Positions 12,861 through 35,253 of a stretch of 64,000 nucleotides of DNA are shown here, one piece after another. The DNA is from a virus (taxonomy: Duplodnaviria; Caudoviricetes). The translations under genes were made by a program, and so were the position numbers. Every line of letters starts with the position of its first letter. Position 1 is the first letter of the stretch. The stretch lies in the IMG/VR virus record IMGVR_UViG_3300024255_001563, positions 128,001 to 192,000 of that record; one strand, given 5' to 3'. Under the pieces are notes generated by a model that was not told the origin of the DNA, searched no databases, and saw only the letters and a list, made by a program, of their open reading frames with translations.

Positions 12861-13407
12861 CTTTAGAGAAGACGGTACAATTTTAAAAGTTGGCAATGTA
12901 CTTGACGAGTCTTCCTTATACATAGAAATAGAAAAATATTTAGTACAAGATTTTGCAAATTGTAAAAAAGAGTTTAAAGACTATCTTGTAGTCCCAAGCG
13001 ATTCTGCAGATGCAAACTATGTAATGAAATTTAGGCATACATCATTAGAAGACTTTGATGTTGACAGAAGTATTTTACAATTGTCTAAAACTCTTATTAG
13101 CGAAAGACTAAACTTTATTATTCTACAAGACCCTAGAAACGGAGTATGGAAAGCAAAATTAACAGACGATTTAAAATCTTTGTTAACAAGCACATCATAT
13201 TATAAAGATAAATCGCATACACTATTTGTCACAGACGAAGATGATCCTAATGTATTACTTGACACACTAGTTGTTGAGTTTTCTGAATTGCTTTATAAAG
13301 ACGAGTGCATAATAAAAAATACTAATAAAGAGGTTGCTCAGAGGACTGATGTGAGTGTATACTGTGGTAAGGTCTTTGAAAATTATAGTCATATTATGGA
13401 GAACTAA
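12841..13407 (+). CDS. Hypothetical protein (188 aa)
   Basis: Intact ORF overlapping both neighbours. Confidence 0.65.
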   Translation: MQKYYLNFREDGTILKVGNVLDESSLYIEIEKYLVQDFANCKKEFKDYLVVPSDSADANYVMKFRHTSLEDFDVDRSILQLSKTLISERLNFIILQDPRNGVWKAKLTDDLKSLLTSTSYYKDKSHTLFVTDEDDPNVLLDTLVVEFSELLYKDECIIKNTNKEVAQRTDVSVYCGKVFENYSHIMEN

Positions 13408-14306: not shown

Positions 14307-14800
14307 ATTTAAATGTAAAAAAATTTAAAGCGTCAATTGACAACTTTTTTGGCTGGGTAAAGAAAACAGAACTAGTAGAGCTAGATGATATTGATGTAAC
14401 AGAAGATCCAGTACGTCCAGAGCTTGATGTAGAATGGCGTACTAGTTATGGACGTAAGATATACGGACTAAAGCACGAAAATGAAATTGAAGGTATTATC
14501 TGCATTGCATATACTAATGATGTACCTAAAAGTGTAAAAGAGTTAGACTTAATGAGTCAAAATGCTCATTTTAAAAATGATGTTAATACGGCAGTTGCTT
14601 ATACAGTATGGAGTCGTAAGCGTGGCGCTGGTAAAGAGATAATACACAAAATAGGCGACTTAATGAAGTCTCGTGATGATATTGAAACACTAGTAACCCT
14701 ATCACCGTTAACGCCAATGGCAACACACTTTCACATACGTAATGGTGCAAAACAAATTGCTATTAGCAATACAACACAGAATTTTAAATATACATTATGA
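14303..14800 (+). CDS. GNAT-like acetyltransferase-fold protein (165 aa)
   Basis: 'AVAYTVWSRKRGAGKEII' resembles GNAT motif A (RxxGxG/A). Confidence 0.45.
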   Translation: MNLNVKKFKASIDNFFGWVKKTELVELDDIDVTEDPVRPELDVEWRTSYGRKIYGLKHENEIEGIICIAYTNDVPKSVKELDLMSQNAHFKNDVNTAVAYTVWSRKRGAGKEIIHKIGDLMKSRDDIETLVTLSPLTPMATHFHIRNGAKQIAISNTTQNFKYTL

Positions 14801-16179
14801 GTAATGAACAGCGTATACAAGTACTAGAAGAAAAACGTGAAAAGATAAACAATGTAAGTTGTTCATTCTGTACGGCTAAATGGTTACAAACTACGCTACT
14901 ATTACAAAACGGTTACAATCACAGTTGTCATCATCCTGCTCCACATAAGATTCCGTTGCACGAAATTGAAGCAAATCCAGCGGCACTACACAACAGTAAG
15001 TTTAAAAAAGAACAACGTGCTAAGATGCTTAAAGGTGAGCGTCCTAAGGAGTGCGGATACTGTTGGAAAATTGAAGACTTAGATAAAAACTATTTTAGTG
15101 ATAGACATTATAAAACAAGTGACTCTTGGGCCTGGGATAGATTTGAAGATATTGCTAAAAGCAATCCACAAGACGATGTGTACCCAAGTTACTTAGAAGT
15201 ATCATTTAGTAATGCTTGTAACTTTGCTTGTGCATACTGTTCACCTGAGATTAGTAGCAAGTGGATGGAAGACGTAAAGCAACACGGAGAATATCCAACC
15301 AAGCACGGTTCGCATAATCTAGACTATTTAAAAGAGTCTGGTAAGATGCCAATACCTAATAGAGAACATAATCCTTATGTAGAAGCATTTTGGAAATGGT
15401 TTCCTGATGCATTACCGCATTTAAAAGTGTTGCGTATCACAGGCGGCGAGCCTACTATGTCAAAAGATACCTGGAAGCTTCTAGATTATCTAATAGAAAA
15501 TCCACGCAAAGGTTTAGACATTTCCATTAATACAAACGGATGTGTAGAAGATAAACTAATTGACAAACTAATTTTAAAAGTTAACAAACTTGCAAAAGTA
15601 GGAGTTAAAGTTGACATATACACTAGTCTTGAAAGCACAGGCCGCCAGGCGGAATATGCTAGAGACGGATTAGTATACTATGATTGGGTTAAAAACATAG
15701 AGCGTTTGCTTTCTGAAACAAAAAGCACAGTTGCAATTATGACAACAATTAACATTCTTAGCTTGCCTACATTCGTCGACTTTATTATGACGGTAATGGA
15801 TTTGCGTAAACTTTATAATACTAGTTTTGAGTGTAATAGAGTGCCGTTGAGTATTAATATTATGCATTGGCCTCCGCATCTTCAATGTACTTTGCTCGAT
15901 AAAGAACAACGTGTAAAGACTGCTAACACTATTGAAACACTTTGCAAAAGTTGGTTAAAATATTATACTAAAGAAAAGTATGCTAGAATATATTTAGAAG
16001 AGTTTGATCAAATACAAAGATTTTGTGATTATTTAAGAACCTCAGAACCAACAGTGGAACACAGAGAAGACTTTGTAAGATACATACAAGCGTACGACAA
16101 AAGAAGAAATAAAGATTTTGCAGAAATATTTCCACAGTATACACATTTATTAGAGGAATGGAATGCCAAAGAAGACTGA
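14797..16179 (+). CDS. Radical SAM protein with N-terminal Cys/His-rich auxiliary domain (type A')
   Basis: CNFACAYC; TGGEP; N-terminal 'FCTAKW...SCHHP...ECGYCW'. Confidence 0.9.
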   Translation: MSNEQRIQVLEEKREKINNVSCSFCTAKWLQTTLLLQNGYNHSCHHPAPHKIPLHEIEANPAALHNSKFKKEQRAKMLKGERPKECGYCWKIEDLDKNYFSDRHYKTSDSWAWDRFEDIAKSNPQDDVYPSYLEVSFSNACNFACAYCSPEISSKWMEDVKQHGEYPTKHGSHNLDYLKESGKMPIPNREHNPYVEAFWKWFPDALPHLKVLRITGGEPTMSKDTWKLLDYLIENPRKGLDISINTNGCVEDKLIDKLILKVNKLAKVGVKVDIYTSLESTGRQAEYARDGLVYYDWVKNIERLLSETKSTVAIMTTINILSLPTFVDFIMTVMDLRKLYNTSFECNRVPLSINIMHWPPHLQCTLLDKEQRVKTANTIETLCKSWLKYYTKEKYARIYLEEFDQIQRFCDYLRTSEPTVEHREDFVRYIQAYDKRRNKDFAEIFPQYTHLLEEWNAKED

Positions 16180-17611
16180 TGAAACGTTACAACAGTATCG
16201 TGATAGAGTATTAGACAATAAAAGTAAGAGTTTCTGCGGAGCCAAGTGGTTTAACGCTACTACCTGGCTTGGTAGTGGTACAACTGCTAGTTGTCATCAC
16301 CCGCCTGCACATAAAATTCCATTAGTAGAAGTAGAAGCAGACTACACTGCTATTCATAATACCAAGCATAAAAAAGAAATGCGCCGCCAAATGCAGACAG
16401 GTGAACGCCCAGCTGAGTGCGAGTATTGTTGGAAAATGGAAGATATGAAAAAGGATGCTGTCAGTGACAGAACCTTTAAAAGCATTATCTATTCTGATGA
16501 AGAGTTACAACGTGCATATGATATGGATCATCATGAGAATGTTAATCTAAAAACATTTGAGATTGCTTTTGATAGAACGTGTAACTTAGCATGTAGTTAT
16601 TGCAATGCAAGTTTCTCAACTACGTGGGCTAAAGATATTAAAAAGAATGGCGAGTACACAAACTTAGTAAGTGATGGCGCTGGTGCATTTAGACAAGACG
16701 GCAGTTGGACACAACCTTACAAAGATGATGACGATAATCCTTACATTCAAGCGTTTTGGAAATGGTGGGATAATGGTTTAGCAGACAGTTTAGAGGAACT
16801 GCGTATCACTGGCGGCGAACCTTTAATGAGCGGAAACACTTGGAAGTTGTTTGATTGGTTTAATAAGCAAGATTCAGATATGCGTTTTGCAATTAATAGC
16901 AATCTAATTGCTAAAGATGCTATTATAGACAAGCTAATTGAGAAAACACAAGGTATGAATCACTTTGAGTTGTATACTAGTTGTGAAGCAGTAGGTGCTC
17001 AAGCAGATTATATTCGTGACGGACTAGATTATGACGAATGGACTAAAAATATTAAACGTATACTAACAGAAGCAAATACTAAAGGCGTACACATTATGAT
17101 GACTATTAACAGTCTTTGCTTGTTTAGTATTACAGAATTCTTAGATGATGTTTACAAACTAAAAGAGCTCACACAAAGTAGAACGCCAACTGTAAGTTTA
17201 AACTTATTACGCTTTCCGAGTTTTCAATCACCGCTGGCATTGCCTAATCATATTAAGGATCATTGCCATAATAAATTGTCAACATGGTATGAAGCTAACA
17301 AAGACAAGCCGGGCTGGAGTGAGTTTGAAAAAGCAAGTATTGAACGTTTAATAGATTACTTGGTAACTGTAGATGCTCCGCATAGACGTACAAGTAACCC
17401 TACTACACTATGGCGTGATTTTAAAACATTCTATGCACAGTATGATGTACGTAGAAACAAAAGCCTAAGTGTATTTCCTAAAATACTAACAGACTGGGTC
17501 GATAGTATTCCAGATACTGATGCAAGCATTATGGAACTTGCAGAAAAAGAAGGTTGGATATTAAAACCTGATAATAAAAACATAGAAATACCTTTGGCAA
17601 CGTATGACTGA
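16163..17611 (+). CDS. Radical SAM protein, type A' paralogue
   Basis: CNLACSYC; TGGEP; N-terminal 'FCGAKW...SCHHP...ECEYCW'. Confidence 0.9.
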   Translation: MPKKTDETLQQYRDRVLDNKSKSFCGAKWFNATTWLGSGTTASCHHPPAHKIPLVEVEADYTAIHNTKHKKEMRRQMQTGERPAECEYCWKMEDMKKDAVSDRTFKSIIYSDEELQRAYDMDHHENVNLKTFEIAFDRTCNLACSYCNASFSTTWAKDIKKNGEYTNLVSDGAGAFRQDGSWTQPYKDDDDNPYIQAFWKWWDNGLADSLEELRITGGEPLMSGNTWKLFDWFNKQDSDMRFAINSNLIAKDAIIDKLIEKTQGMNHFELYTSCEAVGAQADYIRDGLDYDEWTKNIKRILTEANTKGVHIMMTINSLCLFSITEFLDDVYKLKELTQSRTPTVSLNLLRFPSFQSPLALPNHIKDHCHNKLSTWYEANKDKPGWSEFEKASIERLIDYLVTVDAPHRRTSNPTTLWRDFKTFYAQYDVRRNKSLSVFPKILTDWVDSIPDTDASIMELAEKEGWILKPDNKNIEIPLATYD

Positions 17612-18914
17612 TAAAATTGGACCTTACTTTTGCACAGCACCCTGGACACATACTTACGTTAGCCCGCAAGGCGAGCGTAGGTTGTGTTGTGCTAGTAGAG
17701 AAGATGCAAGTTTTCAAAAGCAGTATATAGATGCAGGTGATAAAGACAACACTGAATTTGATCCAATAACACTCGAAGAACATTGGAACAGCGATTATAT
17801 GAAAGATATTCGTAAGCGTATGTTAGCCGGAGAAAAACTAAGCCAGTGCGATGTGTGTAATAATCAAGTATTAAATTTACATACATACAAAAACTATTTT
17901 ACTAATACACTATTTCCGCACAAAGTCGAAGACATAATAGCTAGTACAAAAGAAGACGGCTACACAACTATGCAACCAATTAGTTTTGATTATCGTATAA
18001 GCAATCTTTGTAATTTTAAATGTCGCATGTGCGGTGAACAACTTAGTTCAAGTTGGGAAACTGAAAAGATTAAACATAATGTAGTTAACTACAAACGTGA
18101 AAAATGGATGCAACCAGACACACGAAAGAAGATTGCTACATTTCAAAAAGAAGTTCTCGAAACAGAACTACAAACAGCAGTTGACAAAGGCATTGTAGAG
18201 GAGTTATACTGGGTAGGCGGCGAGCCACTTATGTATGATATACATTGGCGTATTATGCAACAGCTAGTAGACGAAGAAAAAAGCCAAGACGTAGTTGTAC
18301 GTTATAATACAAACTTGAGCAGAACACACTACAAGAATTATAAACTGTACGACATGCTAGATAACTTCAAACGTGTTAACCTTTGTGCTAGTATAGACGG
18401 GGTAGGCGAAGTCGGCGAATACATTAGAACAGGACTCAAATGGGACGAGTGGCTACAAAACTTCAAAGATGGCATGTTTCTTATCAATAAGTATGGAGAC
18501 GATGCATTAGTATTTGATGTTACACTAACAACTCCGGGATTGTTTGATTTGAAACGTATGTTTGATGTAGTTACAGAATTAGATGTTAAGAGTTACTTTA
18601 AAATTACATTTGCATTTGACCCTAGTGTTCTAATGAGTCCTATGTGTTTGCCAAGAGAAGTATTAGATGAGCAAATACACAAACTACTAGACTACATTAA
18701 GCCTAGAGTTACACACAAAACTCGTGTGTACCAAGAAACATTAGAAAACATGCTTGAACGCAAAACGTTTGAAGAAGAATACACTGACTATAAAGATGGT
18801 TGGAGACGAGGTAAAAAGAATATAATGTTTATAGAAAGCATCAGAACGCAAGACGTTACATTTAGAGACACTCTTAGTGACGCAGGTAAAGAATGGTGGG
18901 ATAGCATTGAGTAA
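17604..18914 (+). CDS. Radical SAM protein with N-terminal twitch/SPASM-like domain (type A)
   Basis: CNFKCRMC; VGGEP; N-terminal 'FCTAPWTH...LCC...QCDVC'. Confidence 0.9.
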   Translation: MTDKIGPYFCTAPWTHTYVSPQGERRLCCASREDASFQKQYIDAGDKDNTEFDPITLEEHWNSDYMKDIRKRMLAGEKLSQCDVCNNQVLNLHTYKNYFTNTLFPHKVEDIIASTKEDGYTTMQPISFDYRISNLCNFKCRMCGEQLSSSWETEKIKHNVVNYKREKWMQPDTRKKIATFQKEVLETELQTAVDKGIVEELYWVGGEPLMYDIHWRIMQQLVDEEKSQDVVVRYNTNLSRTHYKNYKLYDMLDNFKRVNLCASIDGVGEVGEYIRTGLKWDEWLQNFKDGMFLINKYGDDALVFDVTLTTPGLFDLKRMFDVVTELDVKSYFKITFAFDPSVLMSPMCLPREVLDEQIHKLLDYIKPRVTHKTRVYQETLENMLERKTFEEEYTDYKDGWRRGKKNIMFIESIRTQDVTFRDTLSDAGKEWWDSIE

Positions 18915-20094
18915 TACATTTTGCCCTTTACCGTGGACACACTTAGCAACACATCCGCACGGTAGTGTTACACTTTGCTGTGAAAGCGATATGACGAATC
19001 GTGCAAGCGAATCTCAAAATTTACCACGTGAATTTATCACACTGCACAACTCAGAGTATGATTTTAAAAAAATAATGAACTCAGACTTGTTTAAACAAGT
19101 GCGCAAAGACATGCTAGAAGGTAAACAGCCAGCACCTTGTACAAAGTGTTACAAACTAGAAACACTAGGCAATCAAAGCAAACGTACCCGAGACACAGAG
19201 TTGCTGGACTTTAGCATAGAAGATGCACAGCGTATTACACAAACAGACGGCACACTAGATGAAGTTAACTTTGAGTTTATTGAACTGCGACTAGGCAATA
19301 TTTGCAACCTAGCATGTCGCAGTTGCAATCCACAGAGCAGTTCAAAATGGAAGAGCGACTGGGAAAAACTAAATGAGCGTAAATTTGATATGCCACAAAG
19401 CATGTTTGATTGGCCCTTAGATGAACGCTTTTGGGTAAGTCTAGCAGAACATTGTAATAACACACGCAAAGTATACATTAACGGCGGCGAACCTCTGCTA
19501 GTAGACAAGCACATGCGCTTCTTAGAGTTTTTGATTACCAAAGATTTGGCTAAGAATATTACACTAGTATACAGTACCAACAGTACAATCATAAACGACA
19601 AGTACGTTAACTTGTGGAACAAGTTTAAGCAGGTTGAGTTTATGGTGAGTATTGATTGTTTAGAAGACCGCAATAATTATTTGCGTCATCCTGCTAAGTG
19701 GAATAATATAATAGAAGCATTTGATTGGTTACATAGCTTAGGACATAAAAGTTATGTGTTACAAACAGTAAGTGTAATGAACATATACTATATCAAAGAG
19801 TTTTGGGAGTTCTTTAGAAGCAAGGGTGTTAATGTATCACATAATATGGTACATCATCCTAACTATTACAGTGCAGCAAATGCGCCTCAACATGCCAAAC
19901 AAGCAGTATTAGACAAGATTGTCGGCATGCCGTTCTATGGTAGTATAAATAATTTTTTAAGTCAAGAATCAAACACACTAGCATTTGAACAGTTCTTCAA
20001 AGAGAACGAAAGACTAGATGCTATACGTAAACAGAGTTACGCAGAGACGTTTAAAGAGTGGCACAACATAATAAAGGCAAACAATGACAGATAA
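18907..20094 (+). CDS. Radical SAM protein, type A
   Basis: CNLACRSC; NGGEP; 'FCPLPWTH...LCC...PCTKC'. TTG start at 18907 is preferred (8-nt overlap like the neighbours) over 18877. Confidence 0.9.
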   Translation: MSNTFCPLPWTHLATHPHGSVTLCCESDMTNRASESQNLPREFITLHNSEYDFKKIMNSDLFKQVRKDMLEGKQPAPCTKCYKLETLGNQSKRTRDTELLDFSIEDAQRITQTDGTLDEVNFEFIELRLGNICNLACRSCNPQSSSKWKSDWEKLNERKFDMPQSMFDWPLDERFWVSLAEHCNNTRKVYINGGEPLLVDKHMRFLEFLITKDLAKNITLVYSTNSTIINDKYVNLWNKFKQVEFMVSIDCLEDRNNYLRHPAKWNNIIEAFDWLHSLGHKSYVLQTVSVMNIYYIKEFWEFFRSKGVNVSHNMVHHPNYYSAANAPQHAKQAVLDKIVGMPFYGSINNFLSQESNTLAFEQFFKENERLDAIRKQSYAETFKEWHNIIKANNDR

Positions 20095-21274
20095 ATTATG
20101 CGCTGCACCGTGGGTGCATCTACACACATTTCCGAGTGGGCAAGTTTATCCTTGTTGCCTTACACCTATGGAATTTCCTGTAGGAAATCTAAATAACCAA
20201 TCCTTAGAAGAAGTTTGGAATAACGAAAAAATACGTAATATTCGTAAACAAATGATTGCAGGTATAGAGCCAGAAAGCTGTAAACGATGCTTCGAACAAG
20301 AAAAACACGGCAAAGATAGCTTTAGAGAGCATATGAATCAAACGTTTCCAAATTATGAAAATCTAATACAAACCACCGCTGCTGACGGTTCGTTAGATAA
20401 TATGGATCTTCGTTATTGGGATTTTAGATTTTCAAACATTTGTAATATGAAATGCAGAAGCTGCGGACCTCAACTTAGCACCGGTTGGTATGAAGATACT
20501 AAAAAGATATGGGGCAGTCTTCCTAACGATATACCTGATAAAATTAAGCAATTTGATTTATGGGACCAAATTCTTCCGTTTTTTGATACTGTAGAAGAGA
20601 TTTATTTTGCAGGCGGCGAGCCTCTTATAATGGAAGAACATTATAGAATTTTAAAAAAGTTAGAAGAAATAGATAGGTATGACGTTCGTCTAAAGTATAA
20701 TACAAATTTTAGTCAGATGAAATACAAAAAGCTAGACGCTTTAGAAACATGGGCTAAGTTTAAAGATGTCGAAGTAGGTGCTAGTTTTGATGGCTACGGC
20801 AAACAAGCAGAATATATCCGAAAAGGAACTGATTGGGATCAAATCTATCAAAATAGGTTAAAACAAAAAGAAATAGCGCCTAATGTTAACTTTTTTGTAA
20901 ACTTTACATTAAGCGTAATGAATAGTTTGCATATTATTGATTTCCATCATTATGCAGTAGAGTCTAAATTAATAGATACCTACGATAATTTACATATTAA
21001 CTTTGTACATTCGCCTGAACATATGAGCTTACAAGCATTGCCGCCAAAGCTAAAAGAAACAGTAAAAGCAGCCTATAAAAAGCATATAAGTTTTTTAAAA
21101 GAAAATTTGCAGAATCGCTCCGCTGCTCAGTTTGAAAGTTCTATTAGTTTTATGGAATCAGAAGACAAATATATCTTAAATTCTAAATTTAAAGATTATA
21201 TGAAAACATTAGATGACATACGCAATGAGTCGTTTATAGACACGTTCCCGGAATTAAAAGAAATGCTTGAATGA
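20084..21274 (+). CDS. Radical SAM protein, type A
   Basis: CNMKCRSC; AGGEP; 'LCAAPWVH...PCC...SCKRC'. Confidence 0.9.
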   Translation: MTDKLCAAPWVHLHTFPSGQVYPCCLTPMEFPVGNLNNQSLEEVWNNEKIRNIRKQMIAGIEPESCKRCFEQEKHGKDSFREHMNQTFPNYENLIQTTAADGSLDNMDLRYWDFRFSNICNMKCRSCGPQLSTGWYEDTKKIWGSLPNDIPDKIKQFDLWDQILPFFDTVEEIYFAGGEPLIMEEHYRILKKLEEIDRYDVRLKYNTNFSQMKYKKLDALETWAKFKDVEVGASFDGYGKQAEYIRKGTDWDQIYQNRLKQKEIAPNVNFFVNFTLSVMNSLHIIDFHHYAVESKLIDTYDNLHINFVHSPEHMSLQALPPKLKETVKAAYKKHISFLKENLQNRSAAQFESSISFMESEDKYILNSKFKDYMKTLDDIRNESFIDTFPELKEMLE

Positions 21275-22581
21275 TAAATTTATATTACGATAATATAATT
21301 GACGGCGTTCCGGCACCTAACGGTACATTTAATTTTGAAATATCTAAAGACGCTCGGAGAATTCCATACGTTAAAGATTATAGAGCAGAGATGCCTATAG
21401 CAAAGTTTAATACGTTTTATTTTGTAATGAAAGCAAATAAAACAGTAGTAAACCTTGTGTCAGGCAAGCCTAAAAATATTAAAAATTTATATTATCCTAT
21501 TGAATTAAATTATTCTTATTACGGCTGGAATAGAAACTTAACAGCACTAATATCCCCTAGAGCTAAAAGTTTAATAAAAAAGGGAAGGTTAAAATTATTA
21601 ATTTTAGCTCCGAGGCTAGCCGGTAATTCTTTTATTATTGAACAGTTAAAGCAAAGAGTTGACGAAATAGTAGAATTACTTGGTATTAAAAAAAGCCAAA
21701 TATACATTGTGCTAGGAGAATTAAATAATGTATATAGGACGTTGTTAGACACTAAAAACGTTTTTGGTATAGATTGGTGGCAAATATATATGCAATTAGT
21801 TTATAAAGTTCGAAGTGGATTGTCGTCATTATCGTGGATATGTGAAGATCCATTTTTAAAGATATCAAAAGATTTGACTATTGACCACGAAAATTGGAAC
21901 CCTAAAAAAGTTTACAATACTTCGTTTACAAATTATTTTCAGACAGATGTAACTGTATTTCTTGAGTTGGCTCATAATAACTTACTTGATGACGGGTATG
22001 TTAAGTTAAATTCAAGTAACTATAATTTATCTAAAACAATATCGCCTATGCTAGTTAATCCTAGATCTTCGCAACTTGAAAAAGAATCTAAACAAGGATT
22101 ATTAAAACATATAGACAATTATTCGCAAGAAGTTAACAATACGTTAATGAATTACAATATCGAAGAATACCAAGATACAGTATTATCTATATTGTGTGAT
22201 GACATTGAGATTGATGTTAATACTCAGTATAAACAAGAGGTAGCATCATTTACGTTAGGACCTAACGTATGGAAACACATATATATCGGACACCCTGCGG
22301 CTATTATAGGATGTTCGTCGGTCCATAATTACCTTAATAATCAAGGATATTTTAGTTGCAATGCATTAATTAATCAACATTATGATACAATGTACGATCC
22401 TACAAACCGTGCAGAGCATATTAGAAAAAATATTGAATATCTAAAAAGTCTTAGTAGTGAAGATATAAGCGAATTAATAGCAGAAGCAATACCGTTTTTA
22501 AAAAAGAATCGTGAAATATTTTTAACAAGACGCATGCAGCCTAAATTTTTATCACTTTTTGTTGACATGAATAACAATTGA
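21271..22581 (+). CDS. Hypothetical protein (436 aa), possibly a degenerate glycosyltransferase-related protein
   Basis: Intact ORF; C-terminal 'HPAAIIG...YLNNQGY...YDTMYDP..R' resembles a motif of phage glycan-island proteins. The function is uncertain. Confidence 0.5.
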   Translation: MINLYYDNIIDGVPAPNGTFNFEISKDARRIPYVKDYRAEMPIAKFNTFYFVMKANKTVVNLVSGKPKNIKNLYYPIELNYSYYGWNRNLTALISPRAKSLIKKGRLKLLILAPRLAGNSFIIEQLKQRVDEIVELLGIKKSQIYIVLGELNNVYRTLLDTKNVFGIDWWQIYMQLVYKVRSGLSSLSWICEDPFLKISKDLTIDHENWNPKKVYNTSFTNYFQTDVTVFLELAHNNLLDDGYVKLNSSNYNLSKTISPMLVNPRSSQLEKESKQGLLKHIDNYSQEVNNTLMNYNIEEYQDTVLSILCDDIEIDVNTQYKQEVASFTLGPNVWKHIYIGHPAAIIGCSSVHNYLNNQGYFSCNALINQHYDTMYDPTNRAEHIRKNIEYLKSLSSEDISELIAEAIPFLKKNREIFLTRRMQPKFLSLFVDMNNN

Positions 22582-22590
22582 GTTTATAAT
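22562..22590 (+). promoter_or_regulatory. Sigma70-type promoter, perfect consensus
   Basis: TTGACA (22562-22567), 17 nt, TATAAT (22585-22590), immediately before the ATG at 22598. Confidence 0.8.
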
Positions 22591-22597
22591 ATACATA

Positions 22598-25502: not shown

Positions 25503-26104
25503 AAATAGATATACAAGATGTATTATTCTGGATGGATGCAATTCGCAACAGCGATGACAAATACCGTACACTTGAAAGCTTCTGGAAAGGACAAGTCAAC
25601 AGCAAGATATGGCTTGCTGACGCACTGCGTGTAAACTACGTTGACGATGATGCTCGTATTGTAATATACGGCGGCTGGAATGGTGTGCTTTCTAGTATCT
25701 TATTTAATAGCAGTTTAAGCATTGAGCATATTACAAGTGTTGACATTGATGAAGATTGCCAAGAAACTGCATACACAGTTAATAAAAACTATGAAATAGC
25801 AGGAAGATTTGATGCAGTAACCGCAGACATGTGTACTTACACAGAACCTGCTGACATTGTTATTAACACAAGCTGCGAACACATTACGCAAGAACAATAC
25901 GAACAGTGGTTAGACATTCAACCAGACGATGCGCTATTTGTAATACAAAGCAATAACTACTTTGAGTTAGACGAGCACATTCGTTGTGCAACTGATCAAG
26001 ATGACTTTATGCGCATGAGTAAAATCAAACCATACTGGAGAGGCGAATTTAAAACCCCTAAGTATACTCGTTATATGATTATAGGTAAAAAGAAGAATGT
26101 ATAA
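25499..26104 (+). CDS. Class I SAM-dependent methyltransferase (201 aa)
   Basis: 'IVIYGGWNGVL' motif I, 'TSVDID' motif II, 'DIVINTSCEH' motif IV. Confidence 0.75.
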   Translation: MKIDIQDVLFWMDAIRNSDDKYRTLESFWKGQVNSKIWLADALRVNYVDDDARIVIYGGWNGVLSSILFNSSLSIEHITSVDIDEDCQETAYTVNKNYEIAGRFDAVTADMCTYTEPADIVINTSCEHITQEQYEQWLDIQPDDALFVIQSNNYFELDEHIRCATDQDDFMRMSKIKPYWRGEFKTPKYTRYMIIGKKKNV

Positions 26105-26915
26105 TAGAATAGTAGCATATGGGTGTAGTATTACTTCAGGATTTGAACTTGCAGATTACGAACTAATGCCATCTTTAAATTTTGTTGAAATAAATAAAAT
26201 AAAAGCAAAGGGAGTCGAATTCTGGAGAGACAAAATTGAAAGCAAATACTCTCTTGAATATATTGACAGTAGAGAACATAATCACGCCTGGCCGCAGCAT
26301 TTAGCAAACAAACTTAATGTTGACGTAGTTAATAGAGCTTATCCAGGAAGTAATAGTGAGTCGTCTATATATTTTTTAGAGGAAGATATTAGTAGAGGTT
26401 TTATAAAACCTACTGATCTTATAATTGTTGCTCATACAGAAAGTTCGAGATGGTTCTATCTTGACAAAGAATGCAAAAAACATCATTGTTGTCCAGGCGG
26501 CCTACCAAAAGAGTGGAATTCACAGCTATCGCACAGATTAAGATGGCCGTCGAAATCGTTTCATAAAGATTATGTTTTACATGTATCTAACGATTTTAAC
26601 GATATGTTTCGATGGTTTAAAGATATAAAGTATCTAGAAATGCTATCAAAAAAACATAATATTTTACAAGTTTTTGCATTCACCCCGTTTTTAACTCAGT
26701 TACACAATAACATTAACAAGTTTAAAGAATACAATTTATTAAATGCATATAACTCAGTTAAAGAATTTAATTCTATATTAGATAACTACTTTTCTTTTAA
26801 TGATTTAGTTAATTGGGATGATTCTAGTCAATTGCATACATACACGCATCCTAAAGAAGAATATCATATAGAGTACGCAAATTATATATACAAAAAAATA
26901 AAAGACAGGCAGTAG
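26097..26915 (+). CDS. SGNH/GDSL-hydrolase-like protein (272 aa)
   Basis: 'IVAYGCSITSG' block I Ser, 'VVNRAYPGSNS' block II, C-terminal 'THPKEEYHIEYA' His. Confidence 0.65.
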   Translation: MYNRIVAYGCSITSGFELADYELMPSLNFVEINKIKAKGVEFWRDKIESKYSLEYIDSREHNHAWPQHLANKLNVDVVNRAYPGSNSESSIYFLEEDISRGFIKPTDLIIVAHTESSRWFYLDKECKKHHCCPGGLPKEWNSQLSHRLRWPSKSFHKDYVLHVSNDFNDMFRWFKDIKYLEMLSKKHNILQVFAFTPFLTQLHNNINKFKEYNLLNAYNSVKEFNSILDNYFSFNDLVNWDDSSQLHTYTHPKEEYHIEYANYIYKKIKDRQ

Positions 26916-28004
26916 ATGTTTAACTTTGAAAATTTAGAAAAGGCACAAGTCGAAATAACCAATCGTTGCCAAGCTAGCTGTCCAATGTGCTTAAGGAATA
27001 TTCACGGCGGTATAGAAAATCCTAATCTAACTAGTCATGATTGGACATTAGAAGATTTTAAAGAAATATTTACACCAAAAATTTTACAACAATTAAAGCG
27101 TATAGACTTTTGCGGAGATTTTGGAGAACCTACAGTTAATAATGATTTAATTAGCATGTGTGCTTATATTAAACAGCAAAATCCTGAACTAGAAACTGCT
27201 ATTTTTACTAACGGTAGCACAAGAACACTAGGCTGGTGGAAACGCCTAGCACAGGCGCTTACAGTGCGTCACAAGGTAGAATTTGCACTAGATGGACTTA
27301 GTGATACGCATAGTTTATATAGAGTCGGAACAGACTATGATAAGATTACTAAAAATGCACAAGCATTTGCAAAAGCCGGTGGATATGCAGTATGGATGTT
27401 TATAAGATTTAAACATAACCAAGAACAAGTAAAAGACGCAGAAATTATATCTAGAAAGTTTGGGTTTTCAGAGTTTCATGTTAAAAACAGCAAACGATTT
27501 GGAGATACCTTTCCAGTATTAGATAAACAAGGCAATGTAACACATTATTTAGATCAGCCAGATGTTACACCTATCAAGTTCTTTGATAAAAATGATTTGT
27601 TATCTTACAAATCTTGGCCTGAAGCAGAAAAAGTTAATTGTATGGTGTTACACGATAAAGAAATTTATATAGATGCTAACTTTACAGTATTACCGTGCTG
27701 TCTGCTTGGTAGTTTTTTATATGCAAACTATGATGAAGTTTTATATAAAAAGTATGATGTATATAAGCATTCATCTATTGTAGATGTAGGAAAAATTGCA
27801 CAAAAGGAAACTTATAGAATTGTAGAAGAACTTGGCGGATTACAAGCATTAGATGCAAAAAAAGGTTTAGAAAATATTGTTAATGATCCTAAATGGCAAA
27901 CTATTTGGCAAAGAGAATGGAGTAACAAAACATCTCCTGCATGTATTGTATTATGCGGAAAAAATACTCCATTAACACGGGTCGAAGATCAGGTAGAGCG
28001 ATAA
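26916..28004 (+). CDS. Radical SAM protein, type C
   Basis: CQASCPMC; CGDFGEP; C-terminal 'VNC...LPCC...ACIVLCG'. Confidence 0.9.
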   Translation: MFNFENLEKAQVEITNRCQASCPMCLRNIHGGIENPNLTSHDWTLEDFKEIFTPKILQQLKRIDFCGDFGEPTVNNDLISMCAYIKQQNPELETAIFTNGSTRTLGWWKRLAQALTVRHKVEFALDGLSDTHSLYRVGTDYDKITKNAQAFAKAGGYAVWMFIRFKHNQEQVKDAEIISRKFGFSEFHVKNSKRFGDTFPVLDKQGNVTHYLDQPDVTPIKFFDKNDLLSYKSWPEAEKVNCMVLHDKEIYIDANFTVLPCCLLGSFLYANYDEVLYKKYDVYKHSSIVDVGKIAQKETYRIVEELGGLQALDAKKGLENIVNDPKWQTIWQREWSNKTSPACIVLCGKNTPLTRVEDQVER

Positions 28005-28013
28005 GTAGATATA

Positions 28014-29096
28014 ATGATAAACTTTAATCAACTTAAACAAATCCATTTAGAAATTACAAATAACTGTCAAGCAAGTTGTCCTATGTGTACTAGAAATATT
28101 CACGGAGGACTTAAAAATCCTAATATTAATAAACGTGGATGGACACTTGATGACTATAAAAAAATTATATCTCCAGAAGTTATAGAGCAAATTGAAAATG
28201 TTTACTTTTGTGGAAACTATGGCGATCCATTATTGAACGACCAATTGCTCGAAATGGTCGAGTATACTACTTCTATTAAAAAAGATATCAAAATTACTAT
28301 ACATACTAATGGTAGTTTAAGAAGCAAAGAATGGTGGACAAACTTAGCAAAAGTTATGCCTAATAGTCATAGAGTAGTTTTTGCTATAGATGGATTAGAA
28401 GATACACAAACAATTTATAGAATTGGTACTAGTTACGAAAAAATAATCGAAAATGCAAAAGCATTTATAGATGCCGGCGGCATTGCAGAATGGGCTTATA
28501 TAAGATTTAAACATAACGAACATCAAGTAGAAGAAGCAAGACATCGAGCAATTGATATAGGGTTTGAATACTTTACAATGAAAGATAGTTCGCGGTGGTT
28601 AATGGAACCTAAATTTAAAGTCTTGGATAAACAAGGTAATATTGATTATTATTTAGAACCAAGTCAACATTCAACTATTAAAATTGTTGATACCGATATT
28701 ATTGGAAATTATAAAAGTATTTTAGAAAAAACAGAAATTAATTGTTATGCAAAACATGTAAAAGAAGTTTACATAGATTCTTATGGGCATGTATTTCCGT
28801 GTTGTTGGCTTGCAATGATTCCGTATCATCCTAAAGATTTGGAACACGAATTACATGAAATTCGAGAAGCAATTTATGCAGAATATTTTGACTTAGTTAA
28901 ATCACTAGGTGGTATAGACGCATTAGACGTAAAGAAAAAACCGTTGAAGGATATTATTAATTCAGACGAATATCAAAATGTTTGGAATAGTTATTGGACG
29001 GATAAAAAATTAATTACTTGCGGCAGAGCTTGCGGAATACAACCTGAATTGTTTTCTACGCCGCAGGACCAATTTACAAGTAGGGAAGAGCTATGA
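28014..29096 (+). CDS. Radical SAM protein, type C paralogue
   Basis: CQASCPMC; CGNYGDP; C-terminal 'INC...FPCC...TCGRACG'. Confidence 0.9.
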   Translation: MINFNQLKQIHLEITNNCQASCPMCTRNIHGGLKNPNINKRGWTLDDYKKIISPEVIEQIENVYFCGNYGDPLLNDQLLEMVEYTTSIKKDIKITIHTNGSLRSKEWWTNLAKVMPNSHRVVFAIDGLEDTQTIYRIGTSYEKIIENAKAFIDAGGIAEWAYIRFKHNEHQVEEARHRAIDIGFEYFTMKDSSRWLMEPKFKVLDKQGNIDYYLEPSQHSTIKIVDTDIIGNYKSILEKTEINCYAKHVKEVYIDSYGHVFPCCWLAMIPYHPKDLEHELHEIREAIYAEYFDLVKSLGGIDALDVKKKPLKDIINSDEYQNVWNSYWTDKKLITCGRACGIQPELFSTPQDQFTSREEL

Positions 29097-30505
29097 AAGA
29101 TTTATATTGGCTACAAGACGAAAATAGTCGAATGGGAAAAGGACAGCGAGATGTTTTTGAAAAAACAGGATCTTATACATTTTGCGCACTTCCTTGGATA
29201 CATATAGCAACAAGACCTAACGGTGATGCTAGACTTTGCTGTGTAACAAATGCATCAGGTGCTCATACAGGAGATCACGAAGTTGGTCTTGTTAAAATGG
29301 AAAATGGTGAGCCTGCAAACTTTGGTAAAGATTCATTAAAAGAAGCATTTAATAATGACTACATGTGTAGTGTAAGAAAAACAATGATAGAAGGTAAAAT
29401 ACCTGCTAGTTGTACAAAGTGCTTTGAAGAAGAATCAAACGGAGTTGTAAGTAAACGTCTCTGGGAATTACATGAATGGAACAACGATGGGTTGGATTTT
29501 GCACAGCTAATAAAAGATACAAGCGAAGATGGAAAGATTCCGCACGAAATACAATATTTTGATTTAAGATTAGGTCATACTTGTAACTTGAAGTGTGTAA
29601 TGTGTAGTCCGCACGATAGCAGTCGATGGATGGAAGACTACGAAAAGATTATAGCAACCTCAAACAGTCAAACAGTTATACGACAAATAAGTTGGGATAA
29701 AACAAAGTTTAATAATAAATGGTACGAAAAGCCAGAACTTTGGGAAGAAATTTTTGAACAAATACCACATATTAAACAGTTGTATTTTGCTGGCGGTGAG
29801 CCTTTAATGATTAAAGAACATAGAAAATTTTTATTAGAAATAATTAAAAGAGGATATGCTAAAAATATATGTTTACGATATAACTCTAATGGTGTCTTTG
29901 TAAATCAAGATATGATCGATATTTGGACAGAATTTAAACAAGTTAGATTTGCATTTAGTTTAGATGCAGTCGACGAACGTAACTATTATATTAGATACCC
30001 TACTAAGTGGAAAGATGTAGAGCGTAGTTTAGAGTTAATGGATAATACTCCGGATCATATACATTGTCATATTGCCTGTGCAGTACAGGCATTAAATGTA
30101 AAACATATTGTTCACTTTGCAAAATGGAAACTTACTAAAGGCTATAAGAAAATTAATAAGTTTAAAACAGATATCTATGAAGCAGGTGGCGGAATAATTA
30201 ATCTACATTTACTGTACATTCCTACATTTTTAAGTGCAAGGATATTACCTGAAAAAGACAAACAAGAAATACGTGAACAGTTTGCAGAGTTTAAACAGTG
30301 GCTTTGGGACAATTATACACAAGATGATAACTTTTGGCACGAAAATCCTTATGGTTGGAAACGTTGGGAAGGTATATTAAGATTTATCGACGCAGAAGAT
30401 CATTCACACTTATTACCTGACTTTAAAGATTATGTTAATAACCTTGATAAAATTAGAGGCTTAAATGCAAAAGAAGTATTTCCAGAATTGAAACATTTGC
30501 TATGA
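29093..30505 (+). CDS. Radical SAM protein, type A
   Basis: CNLKCVMC; AGGEP; 'FCALPWIH...LCC...SCTKC'. Confidence 0.9.
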   Translation: MKDLYWLQDENSRMGKGQRDVFEKTGSYTFCALPWIHIATRPNGDARLCCVTNASGAHTGDHEVGLVKMENGEPANFGKDSLKEAFNNDYMCSVRKTMIEGKIPASCTKCFEEESNGVVSKRLWELHEWNNDGLDFAQLIKDTSEDGKIPHEIQYFDLRLGHTCNLKCVMCSPHDSSRWMEDYEKIIATSNSQTVIRQISWDKTKFNNKWYEKPELWEEIFEQIPHIKQLYFAGGEPLMIKEHRKFLLEIIKRGYAKNICLRYNSNGVFVNQDMIDIWTEFKQVRFAFSLDAVDERNYYIRYPTKWKDVERSLELMDNTPDHIHCHIACAVQALNVKHIVHFAKWKLTKGYKKINKFKTDIYEAGGGIINLHLLYIPTFLSARILPEKDKQEIREQFAEFKQWLWDNYTQDDNFWHENPYGWKRWEGILRFIDAEDHSHLLPDFKDYVNNLDKIRGLNAKEVFPELKHLL

Positions 30506-31539
30506 CAACCCCTATTAAGATAAAATCTACTAGAGAAGACTCTTATCTAGATATTAGATGGATGCCTAATAACGTTTGTAATTTTAAATGCAGATACTGT
30601 TTTCCAGGTAGTAATGACGGGGACTATCCTAGCCCTAAAGATATAAATCTTATTATAAAAAACTTCAAACATTTGTTAACTGTTTATAAAGAGCAGTTAG
30701 GAAAAACAAAAACACATATTGAAATTATGGGGGGAGAGCCTACACTTTGGAGAGATCTTGATATATTCGTACAAGAAATTAAAAAAGATCACAATGTTTA
30801 TATTAGTCTTATAACTAATGGGTCACGAACATTGCGGTGGTGGAAAGAAAAAGGACACCTCGTAGACAATATTCATTTGACACATCATGTTGCTCAGGCA
30901 AACTTAGATCACACAATTGGTGTAGCAGATGCTATGTATGATTTAGGAAAGAAAATTACTGTAAAAGTTTTGATGGATCCTACTTGTTGGGACGATTGTG
31001 TAGATGCTGTAGAATATTTAAAAAGGAACAGCAAACACAAATGGTTTGTTACAGTAGCAGAAGTAATAGAAACGGAATCAACTACGTTAAACGACATTAG
31101 AATAATAACCACTGATGATTTAAAGTATACTCCGGAACAGAAAAAGTATATGAAATGGGGTATAAAACAATTACCTAATTTTAAATGGTTTTGGAATAAC
31201 AGAAATCTTATAGCAAACGGTGAAATTAGATATACTGAAAGTGTTGCTACACTAGAAAACAATAAAAAGGTAAGAGCAGAGTCCGGAACTTACATTAATA
31301 AAAATTGGAACAATTTTAAAGGATGGAGTTGCAACATTGGCGTAGATAGTATCTTTATTAATTGGGACGGAACACTTAAAGGATCTTGTGGAGAGTTTCT
31401 TTACGGTTTGAATTATTACTACAACATACTTGACAACGACTTCGAACAAAAATTTGATACGGAAATAAAGCCAACTATATGTTCAAAGTTTAATTGTATT
31501 TGTGCTCCTGAAACACATCTAACTAAGAAGAAACTTTAG
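30502..31539 (+). CDS. Radical SAM protein, type B
   Basis: CNFKCRYC; MGGEP; C-terminal 'WSCNIG...GSC...ICSKFNCIC'. Confidence 0.9.
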   Translation: MTTPIKIKSTREDSYLDIRWMPNNVCNFKCRYCFPGSNDGDYPSPKDINLIIKNFKHLLTVYKEQLGKTKTHIEIMGGEPTLWRDLDIFVQEIKKDHNVYISLITNGSRTLRWWKEKGHLVDNIHLTHHVAQANLDHTIGVADAMYDLGKKITVKVLMDPTCWDDCVDAVEYLKRNSKHKWFVTVAEVIETESTTLNDIRIITTDDLKYTPEQKKYMKWGIKQLPNFKWFWNNRNLIANGEIRYTESVATLENNKKVRAESGTYINKNWNNFKGWSCNIGVDSIFINWDGTLKGSCGEFLYGLNYYYNILDNDFEQKFDTEIKPTICSKFNCICAPETHLTKKKL

Positions 31540-32428
31540 TTAACGGAATATCAGCAGCACAAGTACACCACTTACGTGTACAAGTAATTGGTTCTAAAGG
31601 TTGTTTAAACGTACCATTATAAATATTTCCTAGACTACCGCCTACTCTACAAGTAGCACGATGAACCTCGCCGTCCCAATTGATCATCAGACTTTCTAAA
31701 CCTGCATTACAAGTCCAGCCCTCGAATTGATTTAGTTTATGTTTAATAATATCATTAGCATGTATCATATCTTTTCCGTCTATGACGCAGTTTGCCTTCA
31801 CAGTTGCAGTTTTACTAAGTATCCATTCTAAGTCTTGTCCGTTATACCTCATATCGTCAAACCATTCTCGATCGTCAGCATCAGTCCATCGTATTCGTCT
31901 ACACACATACGGAATACGATGACTTTCAAGCAATGATGCTACATCGCGTACTTGATTCATATATTCATGATGACACATTAAGTTAACTTGAAATAGCGTA
32001 TCCTTGCCCTCCATGTCTAGTAACTGACTATATCTAATAATATTTTCGCCTGCTCTTCGGCTATGTTCGTTGTCAAAGTGCAAACTAAATACCCATTGAT
32101 CTACAGGTTGTTTAATATACCACTCTGGCGAACGCAATCCGTTTGTAGTAACACTTAGCCGCTGTAGTCGTTGACTTCCACATTCTAAGATATCATTAAT
32201 TTTAGGATGTACAGTAGGTTCGCCTCCTGTTAAACTTAGTCGTATTGGTTTATTAATCTTTTCCAATTCATAGATTGTGTTAACCATAACATTTAGATCA
32301 GTGTGAGGGCTAAAGTTATCGTGTATTTCAGCAGGACAGTAAGCGCAATCTAAGTTACAGCGTTTGCCAATATTCCATTCGACATGAATACTGGTATGGT
32401 GTCCCCAACGATTTTCTATGCTATGCAT
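31523..32428 (-). CDS. Radical SAM protein, type B
   Basis: CNLDCAYC; TGGEP; C-terminal 'WTCNAG...ATC...TCTRKWCTC'. Start at 32428 (MHSIENR) gives an 8-nt overlap with the upstream gene. Confidence 0.9.
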   Translation of the reverse strand: MHSIENRWGHHTSIHVEWNIGKRCNLDCAYCPAEIHDNFSPHTDLNVMVNTIYELEKINKPIRLSLTGGEPTVHPKINDILECGSQRLQRLSVTTNGLRSPEWYIKQPVDQWVFSLHFDNEHSRRAGENIIRYSQLLDMEGKDTLFQVNLMCHHEYMNQVRDVASLLESHRIPYVCRRIRWTDADDREWFDDMRYNGQDLEWILSKTATVKANCVIDGKDMIHANDIIKHKLNQFEGWTCNAGLESLMINWDGEVHRATCRVGGSLGNIYNGTFKQPLEPITCTRKWCTCAADIPLTKVSS

Positions 32429-33686
32429 ATGGTTTAAACTCTGGTGTAGCATCAAGAAAAGACTGATTACGGCTTGCATCTAATCTTTTATTGTATTCGA
32501 TAGTGTCTTGCCATAAATTGCTTTGATCGTTTGCTTTTATAAAATTAATTATTCCGTCTATTTGACCTAGCGTAATATTTAATAGTATTGGATTTTCTTT
32601 TACATAATAAAAGTTAGGAACATCTAATTTTATAGTTTCTAATCGTCTAATTGCTTCTAGCTTTAATTCTTCGGGCAATACTTGTGGACATAATACTCTA
32701 GGATAATTTACCATGTTTGTGTAAAATACAATTCCTATATTGTTAAGAAAGTGTTCTATCATTTTATCTAGTATTAATACATTACTAACTTGTACAGCAA
32801 CAGCACCTACTATTCTTGTAATATTAGGAAAAGTTTTAAAAACTTTTATGTTCTCCATAATGTCTTCGAACTTGCCATTGCCTCGTACATATTCGTAACT
32901 ATCGCCTATACCATCTATACTTACATTAAGTGCGATTGTTTTAAACTTGGGCCAATAGTCGTGTATAGTACGTCCACCTTTAATACCGGTAGTTGTTCCG
33001 TTAGTAGCATACTTTAGTTCAATGTTTTCTCCGTATGGAGCCAACATATCGAGTATACGATAATGTTGCGGATCCATTAATGGTTCTCCCCCAGCAAACT
33101 CTACACGTCTAAAGTAAGGCAATAACTTTTCAAAACTATTCCACCAATTTGGATTGTCATCAAATTTGTCCAAATAAGGTTTTTTCATTAAGTTGAGCTT
33201 ACGTATTTCCTCAACCATAAAGTTACCTTCTTTCACATAAAATTCTTCTACTTCTTTATAGTCATTCCAACTAGTACTATCCATTGGATGACACATACGA
33301 CATTTTAAATTGCACAAGTTATTGAGCTTAATTTCCATAGTAGGAATTTCGAAAGGCATGCTATAATCTTCGTCTAATGCGTCTAATGCATCAGGGTATA
33401 AGTTGACCCTAGCTTCCGGTATTACTCCTGCTATATGACGCTGTCGTAAGCTCTCTACCCCCTGATCTTCAAGGTTAAAGCATGGCGCACATTCGCTAGG
33501 ACGATCATTATTTAAAACTTGTTTTCGAATACGTTTCATAGTATCGTTATTCCAAATTTCTTCAAGAGTTTGTTCTTGTATATTACCTACAGGATGACTA
33601 CGACAGCAAGCCATGACAGCACCGTCACTGCGTGTTGCAAGTCCTGTAAAAGGATGCATACAGAATGTACATGATTTATTTTGCAT
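32421..33686 (-). CDS. Radical SAM protein, type A
   Basis: CNLKCRMC; AGGEP; 'FCMHPFTG...ACC...ECAPC'. Confidence 0.9.
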   Translation of the reverse strand: MQNKSCTFCMHPFTGLATRSDGAVMACCRSHPVGNIQEQTLEEIWNNDTMKRIRKQVLNNDRPSECAPCFNLEDQGVESLRQRHIAGVIPEARVNLYPDALDALDEDYSMPFEIPTMEIKLNNLCNLKCRMCHPMDSTSWNDYKEVEEFYVKEGNFMVEEIRKLNLMKKPYLDKFDDNPNWWNSFEKLLPYFRRVEFAGGEPLMDPQHYRILDMLAPYGENIELKYATNGTTTGIKGGRTIHDYWPKFKTIALNVSIDGIGDSYEYVRGNGKFEDIMENIKVFKTFPNITRIVGAVAVQVSNVLILDKMIEHFLNNIGIVFYTNMVNYPRVLCPQVLPEELKLEAIRRLETIKLDVPNFYYVKENPILLNITLGQIDGIINFIKANDQSNLWQDTIEYNKRLDASRNQSFLDATPEFKPYA

Positions 33687-35213: not shown

Positions 35214-35240
35214 ATCGTATTTACCTGAGTTAACTGCGCA

Positions 35241-35248: not shown

Positions 35249-35253
35249 TTTCT

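Follow-up and report, generated by a model that had tools for sequence, protein, structure and literature searches.

Clusters of radical S-adenosylmethionine (rSAM) genes have been noticed before in T4-like phages. The Campylobacter phages CP220 and CPt10 encode 11 and 12 rSAM proteins per genome, function unassigned, including an exchangeable module of five together with an amidinotransferase (Timms et al. 2010, PMC2853527). In pelagimyophages, the 'host recognition cluster' carries rSAM cassettes that were mentioned in passing without family, count or function (Zaragoza-Solas et al. 2020, PMC7029224). Here we describe an array of 12 rSAM genes in a 64,000-nucleotide stretch of viral DNA (the window), which corresponds to bases 128001-192000 of the 200,843-bp IMG/VR viral contig IMGVR_UViG_3300024255_001563, estimated to be 57% complete. 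An upstream gp23 major-capsid match (E 6e-99) placed the contig among the T4-like myophages, and the phage is an abundant, uncultured marine T4-like jumbo phage. The rSAM open reading frames (ORFs) are named by their start coordinates in the window (such as r20084), and related loci are designated L001, L011 and so on.

Like the pelagimyophages, this phage is a T4-like marine myophage with a large, variable island in the fibre region, in which glycosyltransferases occur together with rSAM cassettes that vary between relatives. A single giant ORF of 5,266 amino acids (aa) at contig positions 114709-130509, ending at window position 2509 directly upstream of the fibre genes, holds the position of the pelagimyophage VrlC-like giant protein, a likeness by position alone. 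The phage differs from the pelagimyophages in its larger size (200 kb at 57% completeness) and in carrying 12 rSAM copies plus one. The Campylobacter phages infect gut bacteria, unlike the marine phage described here, and tblastn with r20084 retrieved no Campylobacter phage at E<=1e-5, so the rSAM proteins of CP220 and CPt10 likely belong to a different family. Megablast of the 19-kb array against cultured phages gave no match, and tblastn against them found only relatives of 22-27% identity, in KVP40-like Vibrio phages and Ralstonia phage RsoM2USA. The glycosylation of the PBCV-1 capsid by A64R, of the Mimivirus fibril and of mycobacteriophage virions likewise relies on the virus's own cytoplasmic glycosyltransferases. 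To our knowledge, radical SAM enzymes are not known from any of them. The array is thus a conspicuous case of a phenomenon that has been noticed in print yet never explained. As far as our searches show, no publication links such arrays to glycan tailoring or describes the permuted twitch architecture, the deep orthogroups and the early-type promoters set out below.

The radical SAM array and its proposed role

Twelve intact rSAM ORFs were located between positions 14797 and 33686 (about 19 kb), ten on the plus strand and two (31523-32479 and 32421-33686) on the minus strand, which corrects an earlier listing. Exactly one CX3CX2C motif was present in each of the 12, and Pfam PF04055 (Radical_SAM) matched all of them. 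Ten exceeded its curated cut-off of 29.5 bits; r16163 (23.2 bits) and r20084 (27.5 bits) fell just below it, yet both lie above the cut-off of 170 bits of the NCBIfam family NF033640. The GGEP motif was found in ten copies, and the remaining pair has GEP or GDP. An earlier note, made by a model from the letters of the DNA, had counted 12 intact CxxxCxxC ORFs in 19 kb and had seen no sign of decay in their GGEP/GEP/GDP-type motifs; the family matches, the motif scan and the selection analysis given below agree with it on both counts. All of the ORFs that it listed exist, but two of its starts, 18907 and 24504, are internal ATGs of longer ORFs that begin at GTG 18877 and TTG 24492. In the case of r18877, ATG 18907 may nevertheless be the true start. 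Thirteen rSAM matches were obtained in the 200,843-bp contig, all within 14.8-41.1 kb of the window and none elsewhere, which indicates clustering rather than chance. The island is flanked by fibre-type proteins, one with a tail-collar domain (3149-5242) and one with an Mtd_N domain (48290-49696). The latter, a 468-aa protein encoded on the minus strand, has the N-terminal domain of the Bordetella-phage major tropism determinant (E 5e-11) and bounds the island.

We favour, with slightly better than even confidence, the view that the array forms the oxidative-editing half of a cytoplasmic pathway with which the phage builds a glycan, encoded in its tail-fibre (host-recognition) region. Glycosyltransferases would assemble an oligosaccharide on an acceptor, which as a first guess would be a virion protein such as the fibre and less likely the host envelope or DNA. 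In each rSAM enzyme a 5'-deoxyadenosyl radical would abstract one particular sugar C-H, with the auxiliary [4Fe-4S] cluster accepting or donating an electron, to yield a keto, deoxy or decarboxylated sugar, an epimer or a C-C link. BtrN, HygY, AprD4, DesII and BlsE are characterised sugar-acting rSAM enzymes with this chemistry. Neighbouring PP-loop, aminotransferase-like, methyltransferase-like and Fe/2-oxoglutarate (2OG)-cupin proteins would attach further groups. The many paralogues would correspond to many positions or steps, and gain and loss of cassettes between relatives would vary the final glycan. A more specific form of the proposal is that editing follows assembly: a dozen rSAM enzymes, in most of which the twitch domain is permuted to the N-terminus, would alter one C-H apiece on a fibre-borne glycan, and turnover of the cassettes would give the phages a combinatorial chemistry at their surface by which host range or resistance to degradation is tuned. 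We regard this form as possible but rather doubtful.

Glycosyltransferases associated with the radical SAM genes

The strongest single clue to a glycan role is the fusion of rSAM homologues to glycosyltransferases (GTs). All seven of the long homologues of the B-type protein r24492 that were scanned are multidomain proteins fused to a GT2, GT1 or GT4 domain, and long homologues add methyltransferase, GNAT or sulfotransferase domains. At least one GT-fused homologue comes from a cellular genome, that of Desulfonatronovibrio magnus.

Glycosyltransferase-like genes also share the operon with the rSAM genes, which likewise supports the glycan proposal. From 10830 to 31539 on the plus strand, and from 34374 back to 31523 on the minus strand, neighbouring genes overlap or abut; the intergenic spacing in 10830-34374 is -59 to +16 nt. 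The plus-strand operon opens with a 115-aa gene of unassigned function (10830-11177) that is conserved in L001 and L002. It is followed on the same strand by two paralogues, each a candidate GT8-like (glycogenin-like) glycosyltransferase. The second (12021-12860) matched glycogenin-2/-1 in a PDB profile search (E 3e-5) over its N-terminal nucleotide-sugar half. The first (11174-12028), assigned to the GT-A fold, gave a weak glycogenin match by itself and 99.5% probability in hhalign against the profile of the second.

The gene at 13407-14306 (plus strand) appears to encode a phage-specific GT2-like GT-A glycosyltransferase with a DAD motif, and it is conserved directly upstream of the first two rSAM genes in L001-L003. 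PDB profile search with this protein gave chance-level matches only. Its AlphaFold2 (AF2) model (pLDDT 72) had 14 Foldseek matches at E <= 0.001 with TM about 0.3, of which 13 were GT-A glycosyltransferases (GlyE, PBCV-1 A64R, RmlT, GtrB and hyaluronan synthase), A64R being among the top matches; the other was a glucose-1-phosphate thymidylyltransferase. A C-terminal GT2-like domain paralogous to it was found in the 644-aa product of 22598-24532 (plus strand), preceded by four degenerate repeats of about 100 aa. The repeats contain MFW..., DG.(I/V)L and RF..NKK motifs and resemble the segment that follows the DxD motif of the GT2-like domain; they were missed by self-BLAST of the protein and revealed by a motif scan. 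The 436-aa phage-specific protein encoded at 21271-22581 (plus strand) is possibly GT-B-like. This is a lead taken from structural neighbours, the nearest named family being GT10 at 0.77; its neighbours in the Atlas are fused to methyltransferase or GDP-mannose dehydratase/epimerase domains.

The sugar context extends to relatives. In L004-L007, which form a separate and very abundant lineage of marine phages, orthologous rSAM genes lie among two UDP-glucose/GDP-mannose dehydrogenase-like genes, a cytidylyltransferase and an O-carbamoyltransferase, a setting that favours the glycan proposal.

Subfamilies, domain architecture and structural similarity

The sorting of the 12 copies into subfamilies A', A, B and C in the earlier note was checked by all-against-all BLAST. 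The A' pair was 37% identical, the five A copies 26-35%, A against A' 20-24%, and the C pair 41%. These three groups were thus reproduced, but group B proved looser than the note had implied: its three copies are only 20-24% identical to one another (E 1e-6 to 1e-15) and are better viewed as three families sharing one architecture.

The seven A and A' copies are full-length members of one NCBIfam family, NF033640 (N_Twi_rSAM), with 305-410 bits and matches that span model positions 1-3 through 389-397 of 398. They match the family end to end and share its N-terminal C...CC...CxxC twitch ahead of a CX3CX2C core. NF033640 has no assigned substrate or reaction, and it is mostly single-copy in cellular genomes, in contrast to the seven deep orthogroups stacked in one operon here. 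The A' copies are A'1 (14797-16179, 330 bits, CX3CX2C at residue 141) and A'2 (16163-17611, 305 bits, residue 140), both on the plus strand, with orthologues at 59-63% identity in L001, L002 and L004 for A'1 and at 68-70% for A'2. The A copies on the plus strand are 17604-18914 (323 bits, motif at residue 136), 18877-20094 (342 bits, residue 143), 20084-21274 (410 bits, residue 120) and 29093-30505 (390 bits, residue 164); the fifth, 32421-33686 (330 bits, residue 125), is on the minus strand.

The B and C copies scored 34-51 bits on NF033640 and are not members, and no curated family reached its cut-off for them. The B copies are 24492-25502 (plus strand, CX3CX2C at residue 40, with a C-terminal Cys cluster), 30502-31539 (plus strand, residue 26, the final gene of its operon) and 31523-32479 (minus strand, residue 41). 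The C copies, both on the plus strand with the motif at residue 18, are C1 (26916-28004, GEP, C-terminal C-x18-CC...CxxxC) and C2 (28014-29096, GDP, C-terminal SPASM-like Cys).

In the N_Twi copies the auxiliary-cluster twitch/SPASM domain is N-terminal to the rSAM core. All five A copies, whose Cys pattern is C...CC...CxxC, have a Pfam SPASM match before the core (residues ~6-110); the A' pair has the variant C(xxC)...C...CxxC. The Cys-rich domains of the C pair, with C-x18-CC...CxxxC, and of the three B copies are at the C-terminus. The N-terminal domain aligned with the twitch domain of BtrN (2-deoxy-scyllo-inosamine dehydrogenase, PDB 4M7S/4M7T) at the PC, GN, W and CxxC columns, with E 0.03 and at the opposite terminus, the BtrN twitch being C-terminal. 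The Cys pattern, too, would suit a BtrN-like twitch with a single auxiliary cluster. The aligned columns and the proposed H-abstraction at a sugar carbon would link the array to BtrN; whole-protein similarity to BtrN and BlsE is generic.

The AF2 model of r20084 was confident (pLDDT 90.7) and was compared with known folds by Foldseek against the PDB, by a search of the AFDB Swiss-Prot set and by a wider structural search. Against solved structures it matched the generic rSAM core only (TM about 0.4, 13-19% identity). The best Foldseek matches were CteB, anSME, SkfB and SuiB. In the ranking by Z, BlsE, a sugar-nucleoside decarboxylase, was the top structural match (Z 12.9), in a tie with anSME, SkfB, MoaA and CteB (Z 11.8-12.9). 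Since sugar-, peptide- and cofactor-acting enzymes tie in these searches, the substrate cannot be assigned from the fold. The twitch alignment with BtrN and the position of BlsE at the head of that tie are nevertheless counted among the reasons for the glycan proposal.

Orthologous groups and selection

In a quick IQ-TREE tree of 83 rows, the seven N_Twi copies fell into seven separate, well-supported clades, each of which also held genes of other phage contigs. The single-copy homologues of bacteria branched nearest the r20084 clade, r20084 being the copy closest to them. The 12 genes represent nine or more long-diverged orthogroups. Identity to orthologues in other phages is 45-92%, against 20-41% among paralogues within the window; the array is therefore not a set of recent duplicates, and an origin by recent tandem duplication was rejected.

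The ratio of nonsynonymous to synonymous substitutions (dN/dS) was measured where a near relative exists (L011/L012), and for the A' pair against the more distant L001/L004. The measured copies gave 0.04-0.13: r17604 0.043 (L011), r18877 0.060, r20084 0.096 and r24492 0.095 against L011/L012, and 0.07-0.12 for the A' pair, with dS near saturation. The 644-aa GT2-like protein gave 0.087. The seven copies for which a usable relative exists, five of them rSAM genes, are under purifying selection. The separate orthogroup of each N_Twi copy, together with the low dN/dS, indicates distinct, maintained roles, as the note had supposed of the many retained copies; no relaxed selection was detected across relatives, and the copies did not cluster in one characterised family. 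The 436-aa gene at 21271-22581 was only 39% identical to its counterpart at L011:6002-7315, with dN/dS 0.37, between flanking genes of 79-92% identity. It is a hypervariable member within a conserved operon.

The gene order B-x-x-C-C-A-B-B-x-A is kept in a second near relative, L096, and three other viral contigs (L001-L003), with five rSAM genes each, show synteny for the A' pair and the genes upstream of it. The seven orthogroups shared with other phages, the low dN/dS and the order kept in L096 favour the glycan proposal.

In prokaryote genomes a single-protein scan returned only three N-terminal fragments, and homologues were recovered with an alignment-based scan. An A query gave more than 6,000 homologues, B about 360 and C more than 5,000 (for C2, many of them on 250-370 kb phage contigs). 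The homologues of all three came mostly from marine metagenomes, many on 150-370 kb phage contigs. The island itself was present near-identically in at least 21 seawater DNA runs. In one of the DNA runs (X2), joints that skip cassettes (e.g. 27062 to 28201) were seen but were not used, as their sides are short and they may come from other strains or paralogues. Three contigs binned as bacterial, L029 (DIVA01000093.1, labelled Bacteriovoracaceae) and L023/L026 (labelled Haliscomenobacter), carry 5-8 N_Twi genes in 17 kb. These genes belong to the same orthogroups as the phage copies, and the contigs are probably mis-binned phage contigs or prophages.

Promoters and expression

Three perfect sigma-70 consensus promoters (TTGACA-N17-TATAAT) were located in the island, precisely at unit starts and in the correct orientation. 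The first (10777-10805, plus strand) ends 25 nt before the first operon gene, the second (22562-22590, plus strand) 8 nt before the gene 22598-24532, and the third (34795-34767, minus strand) faces the minus-strand unit of the PP-loop gene, rSAM A and rSAM B. Perfect sites (12 of 12 positions, spacer 16-17 nt) numbered 13 in the 200-kb contig, compared with 0.48 expected from shuffles. Six of the 13 are in the window (10777, 22562, 34767, 52587, 59053 and 63376), and those outside the island face replication/DNA-modification genes. In L011 and L012 the 22562 site retains 11 of its 12 positions even though the coding DNA next to it has diverged (39% protein identity), and the 34767 promoter is also perfect at the homologous place in L096. 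The latter falls inside the longest form of the aminotransferase-like ORF, so the annotated TTG start at 35348 is probably wrong. For the T4 late promoter TATAAATA there was no enrichment, with six matches against 11.6 expected. By analogy with T4-like phages, the consensus promoters suggest early expression of the island by the host polymerase.

RNA-library contigs over 10701-30700 contained identical fragments in 26 of 30 bins (X22) and 16 of 30 bins (X23). As the libraries may contain DNA and the comparison included no silent control, these fragments do not demonstrate transcription.

A hydropathy scan of the island detected no polytopic membrane, flippase-like or polymerase-like candidate except one 288-aa ORF (45595-46461, plus strand). 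It is the sole island ORF with several hydrophobic segments (three by Kyte-Doolittle), and it had no family match. With polytopic membrane proteins nearly absent, the pathway looks soluble. This apparent solubility and the three perfect sigma-70 promoters at unit starts are further reasons for the proposal of cytoplasmic glycan tailoring.

Alternative substrates

Several points weigh against the glycan proposal. No substrate is known for any protein of NF033640 or of families B and C. The glycosyltransferase assignments are remote (E 3e-5, TM about 0.3, model pLDDT 72), the folds of the peptide-modifying enzymes CteB, anSME, SkfB and SuiB matched as well as those of sugar enzymes, and the RNA-library fragments, which come from seawater, could be DNA carry-over. 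Long A-type (N_Twi) homologues are fused to TPR or Sel1 repeats, not to glycosyltransferases. TPR and Sel1 repeats bind proteins. Bacterial single-copy homologues have mixed neighbours with no consistent partner (13 loci with 49 neighbour proteins scanned, three of the 49 belonging to the PhyH family and two to GT1); these neighbourhoods neither support nor contradict the glycan proposal. Finally, in the 369-kb phage contig L098 (6017-14186) three fatty-acid-desaturase-family genes and Asp/Arg-hydroxylase genes are interleaved with rSAM genes, and the desaturase-family genes hint at a lipid substrate.

It is conceivable, though on balance unlikely, that the rSAM enzymes directly modify virion proteins post-translationally, the targets being tail fibres, the 5,266-aa giant protein or the Mtd-like protein. 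They would then introduce residue epimerisation, thioether or C-C crosslinks in the manner of RiPP maturases and anSME, except that the substrates would be full-length structural proteins, and the glycosyltransferases would act separately. The location of the island between fibre genes would suit such a role, as would the protein-binding repeats of the long bacterial N_Twi homologues and the fact that most characterised SPASM/twitch enzymes, like those at the top of the Foldseek matches, act on peptides. Asp/Asn beta-hydroxylase-like cupins, whose family includes protein hydroxylases, are also abundant in the island. The profile scans point the other way. In Pfam and NCBIfam scans no RRE/PqqD-like leader-recognition domain matched any of the 12 copies. 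Curated maturase models (PapB, AlbA, StsB, CteB-type and others) reached at best 20-40 bits against cut-offs of 340-850, the anSME model TIGR03942 reached 22-25 bits against 349, and no sulfatase family was found among the island proteins. No adjacent precursor-peptide gene was found in 10830-34374, where the intergenic spacing leaves no room for a separate one; a nested or distant precursor is conceivable. The note was right that no small substrate gene is adjacent, but its analogy to sactipeptide, ranthipeptide or anSME chemistry was not supported by these scans or by the glycosyltransferase context. The missing leader-recognition domain, the missing room for a precursor and the low scores of the peptide-maturase models in turn favour a glycan. 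The fibre ORFs are Cys-poor, with 0-8 Cys in several ORFs of more than 600 aa, although 13 and 19 Cys occur in two giant ORFs in other parts of the contig; broad thioether chemistry is therefore unlikely on most candidates. Moreover, the sigma-70-type promoters suggest expression ahead of the late structural proteins, and the B-type fusions are to glycosyltransferases rather than to peptide-handling domains.

That the island makes a small molecule, either diffusible or nucleotide-activated (for example an aminocyclitol, an aminoglycoside-like compound or a rare sugar), is improbable. The rSAM enzymes would in that case act on free or nucleotide-linked precursors like BtrN, DesII and AprD4. The BtrN-like twitch domain, the early-type promoters and the PP-loop and aminotransferase-like genes of the island are consistent with this, and in published phages rSAM genes occur together with genes for an amidinotransferase and a sugar aminotransferase (PMC2853527, PMC12801897). 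However, an operon with four or five glycosyltransferase-like genes implies that an oligosaccharide is assembled, neither an exporter nor a resistance gene was seen, and the fibre-region position is conserved across lineages (PMC7029224).

Still less probable is hypermodification of the phage DNA, for instance of a base that is glycosylated and then radically edited, with early expression alongside the replication genes. The island does share its promoter class with the replication/deazaguanine region (52587, 59053 and 63376), and T4-like phages glycosylate DNA. Thymidine-hypermodification pathways reportedly include radical SAM and pyridoxal-phosphate enzymes. Profile scans of the island, however, detected no base-hydroxymethylase, kinase, DpdA/TGT or DNA-binding domain, and its glycosyltransferases are GT8- and GT2-like, not of T4's GT63 or GT72. 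The island is also separate from the deazaguanine module, and orthologous arrays adjoin fibre genes in many phages.

The least probable substrate, in our view, is host lipid or the lipid-linked envelope (lipid A, Kdo or membrane lipids): the desaturase-family genes of L098, a thirteenth rSAM gene that is Tes/GDGT-MAS-like and the membership of lipid A hydroxylase LpxO in the Asp/Asn-hydroxylase family would fit it, but no acyltransferase or Lpx homologue was detected in the island, and no polytopic membrane enzyme save the 288-aa protein with three hydrophobic segments.

Other genes of the island

The remaining plus-strand genes of the array had weaker matches. The 165-aa protein at 14303-14800 weakly resembles the C-terminal part of malonyl-CoA decarboxylase (acyl-CoA/GNAT-like; E 2.5e-5, 24.5 bits, cut-off 23.2). 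The 201-aa protein at 25499-26104, which has a homologue in L004, gave a weak match to a SAM-dependent methyltransferase fold (spermine synthase-like; E 0.0085, under cut-off), and for the 272-aa protein at 26097-26915 profile scans found no family match. A PHROGs search with ten non-rSAM island proteins gave no match. On the minus strand, the PP-loop ATP pyrophosphatase-like gene (33676-34374), with weak TilS-N, NAD synthase and LarE matches, is predicted from its arrangement to be co-transcribed with the two minus-strand rSAM genes. It and a weakly fold-I aminotransferase-like ORF (together 33676-35348, minus strand) lie upstream of that rSAM pair.

The thirteenth rSAM gene (40070-41116, minus strand) differs in type, with an HMPTM-type zinc ribbon at the N-terminus and a core that best matched TrsS and the tetraether lipid synthase Tes, at 85 bits, far under their cut-offs. 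Four tandem paralogues of 170-190 aa (37115-39262, minus strand) are 30-41% identical, with related segments at 35921-37120 (plus strand) and 41154-41840 (plus strand). A language-model search placed the four beside Asp/Asn beta-hydroxylase/cupin clusters. A putative oxygen-dependent oxygenase array thus adjoins the predicted oxygen-sensitive Fe-S array.

Implications for phage biology

It is a puzzle that phages from oxic surface water carry oxygen-sensitive Fe-S enzymes next to Fe/2OG-type oxygenases, which depend on oxygen. If post-assembly editing is true, it would be a new enzymology, in which radical chemistry epimerises, oxidises, deoxygenates or crosslinks sugars that are bound to a polymer, and a new route by which phages diversify their receptor-binding structures. 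If glycan editing is true, these arrays would hold a large unexplored set of radical carbohydrate chemistry and would be the first example of a virus building so heavily tailored a glycan, one that could affect host recognition or virion protection in abundant ocean phages.

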